From Mycoplasmatota bacterium (GTDB lineage: Bacteria > Bacillota_I > Bacilli_A > RF39 > UBA660), in NCBI GenBank assembly GCA_012727915.1, contig JAAYGD010000001.1, positions 1-34,762 of the forward strand: a stretch of 34,762 nucleotides of DNA. Direction: 5' to 3'. Positions 3,001 to 6,000 of the stretch are shown here, in pieces. The position numbers are program-made. Position 1 is the stretch's first letter, and each line of letters starts with the position of its first letter.

Positions 3001-6000
3001 TTCCTCTTGCATAAGGAATTATGCAGTAAGAACAATAATTATTGCATCCATCTTGAATTTTAACAAAAGCTCTTGTTTTAGTATTAAAATTATCTATTGA
3101 CATATTTTCAAAATTACATTTATATATATCTTCAATTTTATATATTTGTTTTTTATTTTTGATATAATCTTCAACTAATTCCACTATTTTAGATTTATTA
3201 GATGTCCCAATTATTATATCTATTCCATCAATATTTATTTCTTTATTAACTTGAGAATAACATCCTACCAATGCTAAGGTAGAATTAGGATAATTATTTT
3301 TTATATGATTTATAGTCTTTCTTGTTTTTATATCAGCATTATTTGTAACCGTACAAGAATTAATTACATAAATATCAGCATATTCTTTAAATTCTACTAA
3401 AGAATATCCTTTTTCTTTAAATTTACTCATCATTACTTCAGTTTCATATAAATTAACTTTACATCCCAAAGTATAAAAAGCTACTTTCATATTTCCTCCA
3501 CAAAAAAACTTATACTATAATTATAAGTTCTTTCTAAATTCTTTCAAACTTTTTAAAAAAGTTTCATTTATATCATAATCAGGAACTTTATAAGACTCCT
3601 CTTTAGGAATAGTAACATTCGAATTTGGAGTGGTTCCTTTTAATAATTCTTCATAACTAATAACCGCAGTTTTTTCTTGTTCATCTTCATATATATCAGT
3701 AACATCTTCATTAACATCATATGTTACTTTTTTAATTTCATCTACAATCTTTTTTAAATCTTTAGTTTTTTCATTAGATTCATCAATAGAAATATCAACA
3801 TTTGTAGATTTTTTTATTTCTTCTAACTTTTTTTCATCTTCTTTAATTAATTTCAATTGTTTATTTTCTATTATTTGCTTAGTATTATTTTGTAATACAG
3901 CCATTACAATCAATACTATCAATATTAAAAATAATAATAAAACAACATAAAAAACTAATTTACCAACTTCGTTTAATCTGTCGTAAAAAGAACTAAAGTT
4001 TAGTATATAAATATTAAGTATATTCATATTAACTCCTATCAATATAATTTTATCATAAATACAAATTAATAAAACTATTTTTTTACCCAGTTTACATCTT
4101 CAAATACATTATATATTATAAAAATATTATTATCAACTTTAATTGAAAAAAAACATTTTATTTGATATACTTTAATATAAGAATAAAGGAGTTTTTTTAT
4201 GGTAGAAAATTTATTTGATGAAACAGAACTAAATAATGTTGCTAATAGTAGTACGTCTATAAGTAAAAACTTTAAAATGATAGATAGATACGGCGAAATA
4301 TTAACTGATAAAGAATATATTACAGATCCCGCAATAGCAAGAGATGAAGAAATAAAAAAAACTATGCTTACTCTTTTCACTCCAGAAAAATCTCCTGTTT
4401 TAGTAGGTAAACCTGGTATTGGTAAAACCGCTATTGTTGAAGGTATAGCATATAGAATTCAAAGAAATGAAGTTCCTGATGCATTAAAAGGTTTTAAAAT
4501 TATAAAAATAAATGCTGTAGCAATGGTTGGAAGTATAGTAAGTGAAGGCAATCAAGATGCTAAGGTTCAATTATTAATCGAAGAAATAGAACAATTGAAT
4601 AAAACAATATTATTTATTGATGAAACTCACACTTTAGTTGGAAATAAAGAAAATGGTGGACTTGATTTTGCAAATATATTTAAACCTTCTTTATCAAGAG
4701 GAGACATAAAAATGATAGGAGCTACCACTACAGATGAATTTGATTATTACATAGTAAAAGATAAAGCTTTCTTAAGAAGATTAGAAAGAATTGATATATT
4801 AGAACCTAATGCAGAAATGACACTTAAAATATTAATGGGAACATTACCTAAAATTGAAAAAACAACAGGAGCAAAATTTAATTACTCTTCATTTATTACA
4901 GAACAAGTAATGAAGTTTATCGTAGATATGACTAAAGAATACAATAGAATATTTGAATCAGCTTCTAGATATCCAGATGTATGTTTTGTAATTATTACTA
5001 AAATGTTCTCTTTTGCTATCTTTGATAATAGCAACGAAGTTAAATTTAAACATATATGGGAAGCAGTTAAAAATACAAATACAGTTTATCCTGATGTAAT
5101 AAAAAAATATACTGAAATATTTAAAATTCAATTTAAAAGAGAATTAGAAGAAGAAAATGTTATAATATAAATTATAAGGAGAAATTTCTGAAAAATGAAG
5201 AATTAATTGATACAATAGCTCTTGAGTCTGCAAAAATTTATATAGCTGATCAAATAGGACTAAAGAATGAACAAAGAAATGCACCTTATGGTGAACATAG
5301 ACCAGACCAATCAATATTTGAGGGCCGTTATGCTGATCCAGAATTAATTGCAGAAAAAATGTTAGAAGTTTATCGTTATACAAGAGAAAAACTAAAAAAA
5401 ATAGTTACTATAGATCAAAACAATACACCCAAAATATATTAGAAATTAATATTAAATAAAAAACTATCAATTGATAGTTTTTATTTTGTTTTTTTAAGAT
5501 AATTATTATATCTATTAAATTTTTCGTTTTCTAAATCAGTATTAGATAAATCGTTAATTAATTCTCTTTGTTTTCTATCTAATTTAGTAGGAGTTATGAC
5601 TTTTACTATTACAAACATATCTCCTTTTCTTTTTGTTTGAACATTTTCAATTCCTTTTCCTTTTATTCTGTGTCTATCTTCGTTTTGAGTTCCTGCTGGT
5701 ATTGATAATATAACATTACCATAAACTGTTGGAACTTCTTTTTTGCATCCTAATATGGCATCTGTAATTGTAATAGGTAAATCTATATATATATCATCTT
5801 CTTCTCTATAATAAAATTCATGTGGTTTAACTTTAAATTCTATATATACATCTCCATTTGGACCACCATTTACTCCAACTTCTCCTTTACCCGCTACTCT
5901 TAATTGATTTCCATTATCTATACCAGGTGGTAAAGTAACTTTTATTTTTTTGTTCTTTTTTACTATTCCTTTTCCATAACAGGCTGAACAAACCTTATCA

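Follow-up and report, generated by a model that had tools for sequence, protein, structure and literature searches.

A conserved single-module Clp D1-type ATPase of the bacterial order RF39 that lacks the pore tyrosine

What is the role of a protein that resembles the first ATPase domain of ClpB, in a genome in which ClpB itself is not found? The question is raised by a gene near the start of contig JAAYGD010000001.1 of a Mycoplasmatota bacterium (assembly GCA_012727915.1, hereafter G000; 873 kb in 76 contigs, 93.8% complete), within a window that comprises the whole stretch of 34,762 nucleotides analysed. The initial annotation took the product for a minimal AAA+ partner of DnaK, which had replaced the classical disaggregase and chaperonin network. 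The gene and its surroundings are as follows.

3521..4042, minus strand: divergent gene for a single-pass membrane protein with an acidic tail, no Pfam family over cut-off
4143..4191, plus strand: the gene's own sigma-70-type promoter-like site with a TG-extended -10 (10/12 match), followed by AAGGAG as ribosome-binding site and without a CIRCE
4199..5170, plus strand: gene for a single-module Clp D1-type AAA+ ATPase of 323 aa ('type A' family), with its own stop
5188..5442, plus strand: small unannotated ORF of 84 aa that probably starts at a CTG, 6 nt past an AAGGAG
5481..9938, minus strand: dnaJ-dnaK-grpE-hrcA, the convergent neighbour, names recognised from sequence
9983..10009, no strand assigned: CIRCE-like inverted repeat ahead of hrcA; it has 2 mismatches, and the mean expected by chance is 0.02

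The identity of the protein is clear at the level of the domain. AAA is the sole Pfam family above cut-off, and the NCBIfam models for ClpB and ClpA match through their own first nucleotide-binding domain only, with 170.9 and 168.9 bits, near-equal scores that make 'ClpB' no better a label than 'ClpA'. The ClpB disaggregase model TIGR03346 matches one stretch rather than two modules, at 170.9 bits against a cut-off of 1232. The orthologues end in their own stop and have no second AAA+ module, and the 323-aa sequence has neither the IGF/L docking loop nor the D2 of a ClpP partner of the ClpA, ClpC or ClpX type. The predicted structure (pLDDT 82) comprises a Clp D1 large domain, a lid and a C-terminal helix, without a coiled coil, and its best folds are the D1 domains of ClpA, ClpB and ClpC (Foldseek E 2e-18, TM by query 0.60-0.73), to which sequence identity is 35-41%. 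Walker A, Walker B, sensor 1, tandem arginine fingers and the D1 fold together place it among the Clp D1-type AAA+ proteins. That the match is restricted to the first nucleotide-binding domain of ClpB, and that the N-domain, the M-domain and the second AAA ring are absent, had been noted at the outset and is borne out by the sequence, the NCBIfam span and the model. The proposed family mark NBD_SMAX1 (PF23569) has to be given up, since it falls below the gathering cut-off here (16.3 versus 27 bits) and also matches a ClpC-like protein.

This is a working gene under purifying selection and not a remnant, as its own stop, the predicted fold and a dN/dS like that of dnaJ indicate: 0.07-0.18 versus five congeners (0.07 for the pair G000 and G001), with 0.04-0.19 for dnaJ in the same comparison. 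Databases name its family members ClpB, ClpA or Clp ATP-binding subunit. PADLOC returned weak generic AAA matches only, and the top matches of an Atlas search were unnamed clusters of the one-ring family itself, with lid-only matches below 0.9. The family is undescribed in the open-access papers searched, which were covered without their supplements, and the words 'Clp' and 'chaperon' do not occur in the portions of text searched from papers on RF39 and UBA660.

The functional sites within the gene are these.

4406..4429, plus strand: Walker A, residues 70-77, in 42/42 genome orthologues and 120/120 database matches
4529..4549, plus strand: residues 111-117 at the position of pore loop 1, devoid of aromatic residues; the segment varies across the family, indels included, and is predicted to form a beta-hairpin
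4613..4624, plus strand: Walker B (D141, E142), invariant
4718..4729, plus strand: sensor 1 motif, residues 174-177, invariant
4775..4780, plus strand: tandem arginine fingers R193 and R194, invariant, aligning with the Clp D1 arginines
4838..5167, plus strand: lid that lacks an M-domain and carries a 4-residue insert and a C-terminal helix that is conserved; model pLDDT 90

Walker A and B, sensor 1 and the tandem arginines are intact in 162/162 members (42 genome orthologues and the 120 top database matches). The aromatic-x-Gly pore motif is found in 0/162 (0/42 and 0/120), as against 18/18 two-ring Clp proteins and 14/16 one-ring paralogues. The pore-loop alignment, not made with a tool at the outset, now confirms the suspected absence of the pore tyrosine: the aromatic pore loop of solved ClpB and Hsp104 aligns gap-free with residues 111-117, and no aromatic residue is present there. 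Both pore loops of the family are variable, with indels, and the lid and C-terminal residues are invariant. The spacing between Walker A and Walker B ranges from 57 to 62, the pore hairpin is shortened in many members, and a hydrophobic hairpin is predicted at the pore position.

Intact catalytic motifs, variable pore loops and invariant lid and C-terminal residues fit an active oligomeric ATPase with a relaxed channel. The invariant arginine fingers suggest an oligomer in which ATP is hydrolysed in trans, and it is they that point to an ATP-dependent hexamer; the channel would no longer be selected to grip polypeptide, and specificity would lie on the lid surface. A prediction of the complex with three copies and ATP scored 0.00, which gives no answer and counts as evidence neither way. 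Loss of the tyrosine alone leaves substrate handling possible, since the D1 pore mutant Y251A of two-ring ClpB keeps partial activity (PMC6593972). Substrate might also be gripped differently, by the predicted hydrophobic hairpin.

Beyond the active site, the invariant residues cluster in the 4-residue lid insert (T245, R250 and Y258-P-D) and in the C-terminal helix, where Y297, D299, K303, F308 and F312 are conserved. In the model, the helix after PD continues directly into the last lid helices, with no Hsp70-binding coiled-coil M-domain between them. A profile of the lid is specific to the order RF39, and Foldseek with the lid alone gave no match at E<=0.001. Some orthologues carry 100-650 extra low-complexity residues at either end; those at L031 4405-7305, L095 2149-5088 and L052 201-2960 have 600-aa low-complexity tails in which short D-x-x-L-L-x-G-like motifs recur, and their C-termini are acidic-aromatic. 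An N-terminal acidic-hydrophobic motif of many orthologues was considered as a shared docking signal and rejected, there being no enrichment of it in the G000 proteome.

The distribution of the gene across the order bears most directly on its role. A profile of 20 orthologues, themselves among the genomes counted, detects it in 144/151 genomes of the family UBA660 at E<=1e-95, and the lid-only profile detects it in 117/121 genomes of the order, a match in G211 being excluded as a paralogue only. Retention is in near-universal single copy, and the protein keeps its own stop and conserved C-terminus in more than 100 genera. The absences (4/121 in the order, 7/151 in the family) represent gaps or losses; G003, the one congener without the gene, also lacks the adjoining gene, which is consistent with a gap. 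True orthologues number 0/262 in other genomes of the class, where four weak matches are longer, two-ring-type, ClpC-like proteins. A 331-aa match in G035 was rejected as a member: it is one piece of a ClpB that is longer but was broken up in translation, probably by another genetic code.

The classical machines are kept less widely: in the same family, ClpP is found in 129/151 genomes, low-scoring GroEL in 29/151, two-ring ClpB without an N-domain in 45/61, and canonical ClpX over cut-off in 0/61. The one-ring gene is present in 44/45 genomes with ClpB and 16/16 without, in 124/129 with ClpP and 20/22 without (two of the ClpP-negative genomes being identified by inference from the tally), and in 28/29 with GroEL and 116/122 without. 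In 14 genomes of 13 genera it is the sole D1-type match. Given this near-equal presence, the gene predates the loss of the classical machines, does not track it and does not need them; the counts show it to be independent of ClpB, ClpC, ClpP and GroEL. Its usual co-occurrence with normal ClpB and ClpP argues for a job of its own rather than for replacement of either.

The family's other chaperone genes have peculiarities of their own. GroEL, where found, is very divergent (short, with low scores), and G022 has GroEL (L103 2065-3591), GroES not being found there. Every ClpB match in the family is without an N-domain. ClpX-like orphan ATPases, whose N-terminal regions are unrelated and which form a parallel to the D1 paralogues described below, occur in 16/61 genomes (for example L096 2777-4012, L100 1361-3205 and 7762-9288, L101 2000-3667 and L102 2174-3706), and ClpC-like proteins with a degenerate second ATPase ring (L034 1208-3448, L039 1244-3352, L077-L079) occur in this and neighbouring families.

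The lid profile also recovers sporadic one-ring paralogues, mostly of 430-840 aa with one of 308 aa, in which a single D1 module stands at the C-terminus; they share the lid insert and a basic-hydrophobic C-terminal motif, and 14/16 have the pore aromatic. A K-(V/I)-(I/L)-x-F-like form of the motif is seen at L047 2748-4271, L050 2466-4076, L081 2045-4576, L084 1757-3160 and 12 more. Their N-terminal regions are highly varied (by eye Clp-N-like, ankyrin-like or DUF6273-like; Pfam names none), and the ankyrin-like paralogues are followed by a large ORF of at least 800 aa. At L082, tandem ORFs (906-2432 and 2512-4119) have the family lid at the C-terminus and no ATPase domain. G000 has no one-ring paralogues. 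With a limit of E<=1e-10, 303 clusters at 50% identity match the profile, a count that takes in orthologues and fragments.

In a quick maximum-likelihood tree of 76 D1 domains, the one-ring family (SH-aLRT 99) stands apart from the two-ring Clp proteins (SH-aLRT 99), with the paralogues between them, and descent from within the ClpB clade is not seen. The tree is a quick search with a midpoint root and long branches, made without bootstrap, outgroup or AU test, so that the order of events is only inferred. Because the family lies outside the two-ring clade and groups with the one-ring paralogues, the gene belongs, in specialised form, to a one-ring group specific to the order and is not a recent cut from ClpB. 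Among the best 80 viral loci, 14 encode Clp ATPases of N-domain and D1 only, 458-502 aa long, with the pore tyrosine kept and IGF at the end (L108, L109, L113-L115, L119, L120, L124, L125, L127, L132, L136, L147 and L180); the C-terminal IGF suggests a one-ring D1 unfoldase that would dock ClpP by its C-terminus. Viral clusters of roughly 331 aa from the Atlas search were not recovered among these 80. D1-only Clp proteins have thus arisen elsewhere too: the gene does hold a conserved single D1-type module, as its billing as a natural single-ring Hsp100 had it, but a one-ring D1 is not unique to it.

The position of the gene beside hrcA-grpE-dnaK-dnaJ, on which the link to DnaK was built, is real, but the gene is not in the operon: it lies on the opposite strand, convergent with dnaJ, with 310 nt between the two ends. 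Within the flanks fetched (1.5-3 kb per locus), dnaJ is found at 6/6 loci of the genus and 1/45 other loci (7/51 in total). Neighbours differ from genus to genus and none is common to all loci. The membrane protein gene is a neighbour at 8/51 loci by tblastn, all in one sub-clade. The 84-aa ORF is 32% identical over 71 aa to an ORF in the same place in G004, with starts in register, has a weaker homologue in G002, is absent from G001 and matches nothing in Pfam or PHROG; it is genus-restricted and outside the family-wide system. At one locus (G092, L059 2182-5603) the one-ring gene is exactly duplicated in inverted orientation together with its neighbours, which is probably an artefact of assembly.

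As to regulation, promoter-like sites in the region are no more numerous than chance would give (11 versus 12.7), and TG-TATAAT-like motifs are seen by eye upstream of many orthologues. CIRCE, scanned with up to 5 mismatches and with the repeat before hrcA as positive control, occurs in 0/38 upstream regions, of which 33 belong to orthologues and 5 to paralogues; the regions extend to 300 nt at most, two of them less far, and some of the genes are operon-internal with the promoter further up. The one-ring gene thus lacks the upstream mark of the HrcA heat-shock regulon. No CtsR boxes were found upstream of the orthologues.

The reading favoured here, to which we give about an even chance, is that of a constitutive, lineage-specific housekeeping ring ATPase that remodels a dedicated folded client without threading. 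Its ancestor would be the D1 ring of class-I Clp proteins, reached via a family of one-ring paralogues; the pore aromatic, N-domain, M-domain and second ring are lost and the active-site motifs intact. The protein would oligomerise, hydrolyse ATP in trans through the invariant arginine fingers and not thread polypeptide, and its expression would be constitutive rather than controlled by HrcA. By ATP-driven changes of shape it would act on one dedicated partner, a folded client or a complex, to bind it, remodel it or release it, and the conserved lid insert and the C-terminal helix would make the contact, much as is seen in torsins and other AAA+ proteins that do not thread. Torsins have a single Clp-related module and are apparently non-threading (10.1101/567099); they are eukaryotic ER proteins with an external activator, whereas the one-ring family keeps its own arginine fingers, and the likeness is an analogy only.

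A general chaperone or remodeller, made constitutively and equipped with pore loops of a non-canonical kind, which would act on many non-native proteins independently of DnaK and buffer an order-wide decay of GroEL, is unlikely but deserves to be weighed. Clp ancestry, the rarity and low scores of GroEL, the predicted hydrophobic hairpin at the pore and the retention of the pore aromatic in paralogues are in keeping with it; the shortening of that hairpin in many members, with the variable Walker spacing, the lack of an N-domain and the same presence in GroEL-positive and GroEL-negative genomes count against it.

ClpV and EccA are ATPases that serve secretion systems, and the one-ring protein might in like manner serve an order-specific assembly or export machine, possibly tied to the variable orphan proteins of these genomes. 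The strict limitation of a core gene to the order, the sporadic paralogues with swapped N-domains and a common C-terminal motif, and the long low-complexity tails of some orthologues could be so explained. With no conserved linkage to membrane or secretion genes, and no paralogues in G000, this proposal has a small probability.

The DnaK partnership put forward in the initial annotation is, on the evidence, very improbable. It draws on the convergence with dnaJ throughout the genus and on the inventory of G000, where no ClpB or ClpC second ring, ClpX, ClpP, GroEL or GroES was found, in agreement with the original list; GroEL and ClpP are 0/7 in the genus. Long Clp queries strongly match only the one-ring gene, the only Clp-type ATPase found, and weakly match Lon, a RarA-like protein, DnaX and FtsH (recognised from sequence). 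True absence of clpB is favoured, as contig C30 is continuous without it at the site that it occupies in G002, beside a glycosyltransferase gene. Absence lists from a draft are nevertheless unsafe: HSP20, present in 4/4 congeners tested, is missing from G000 together with its whole region, flanking genes included, and so looks like an assembly gap. HtpG is found in G001 and G002 and not in G000 or G003-G006, and G002 has a two-ring ClpB of 697 aa. A folding system cut to DnaKJE, trigger factor, Lon, FtsH and the one-ring protein is thus overstated at genus level.

Replacement of the network by a DnaK partner is unsupported, given the equal presence with and without ClpB, ClpP and GroEL and the coexistence with ClpB in 44 of 45 genomes and in the congener G002. 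Outside the genus the adjacency to dnaJ dwindles to a single locus, and CIRCE is lacking upstream. Activation of ClpB by Hsp70 goes through the M-domain, and it is the second ring that acts as chief motor of threading (PMC6593972); the one-ring protein has neither of these, nor the pore tyrosine. GroE is lost in Mollicutes without need of a replacement (PMC5810989), and ClpB is non-essential in M. pneumoniae (PMC7737663).

A role as regulatory subunit, inserted into the D1 rings of ClpB or ClpC or stacked upon them, is very unlikely. It would suit the identity to D1, the conserved arginine fingers and the usual co-occurrence with ClpB and ClpC; against it stand the 14 genomes in which the gene is the sole D1-type match and the strong selection that persists in G000 and G001. 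A decaying ClpB fragment or assembly artefact, suggested by best named matches to ClpB and ClpA and by the draft state of the genome, is refuted by an own stop and C-terminus conserved in more than 100 genera, purifying selection and a position outside the two-ring clade.

The dedicated, non-threading ring ATPase preferred here can be set beside known systems. It is like the D1 of class-I Clp/Hsp100 proteins (ClpA, ClpB/Hsp104, ClpC) in fold, Walker A and B, sensor 1, tandem arginine fingers and the lid PD motif, and like ClpA in a lid that closes without an M-domain, a phage ClpA-like PHROG matching residues 17-294. Unlike them it has no N-domain, M-domain, D2 ring, IGF loop or pore tyrosine, and its lid has a 4-residue insert, has no lysine after PD and ends in a conserved helix of its own. 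ClpX, HslU and Skd3 (human CLPB) have one AAA+ ring of D2 type, keep pore aromatics and thread their substrates; one Clp-group ring is common to all, here of D1 type and with no aromatic. The reduced chaperone sets of Mollicutes are similar in GroE loss, in having Lon and FtsH as main ATP-dependent proteases and in a dispensable ClpB (PMC5810989, PMC7737663), and differ in that no such one-ring ATPase was found in other sampled families of the class.

More broadly, and tentatively, the order may have re-invented the Clp D1 ring as a platform that works on its own. A first branch would be a fast-evolving modular arsenal of one-ring unfoldases, with swapped targeting domains and hundreds of clusters at 50% identity, and the other this gene, domesticated, probably essential and non-threading, which would run an order-specific process and outlast ClpB, ClpC, ClpP and GroEL in genomes below 1 Mb.

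New here are the counts across the order, set against those of ClpB, ClpP and GroEL, together with the group of paralogues whose pore is intact and a corrected chaperone inventory; automatic annotation of the one-ring gene as ClpB or ClpA inflates such inventories. The family offers a natural test of a D1 ring without pore tyrosine or second ring, for which the pore-intact one-ring paralogues are the comparison. The hosts are small-genome bacteria of gut and digester, and a gene kept in about 97% of the genomes of this abundant, uncultured, genome-reduced order, and absent elsewhere in the class as sampled, marks a lineage-specific core process.
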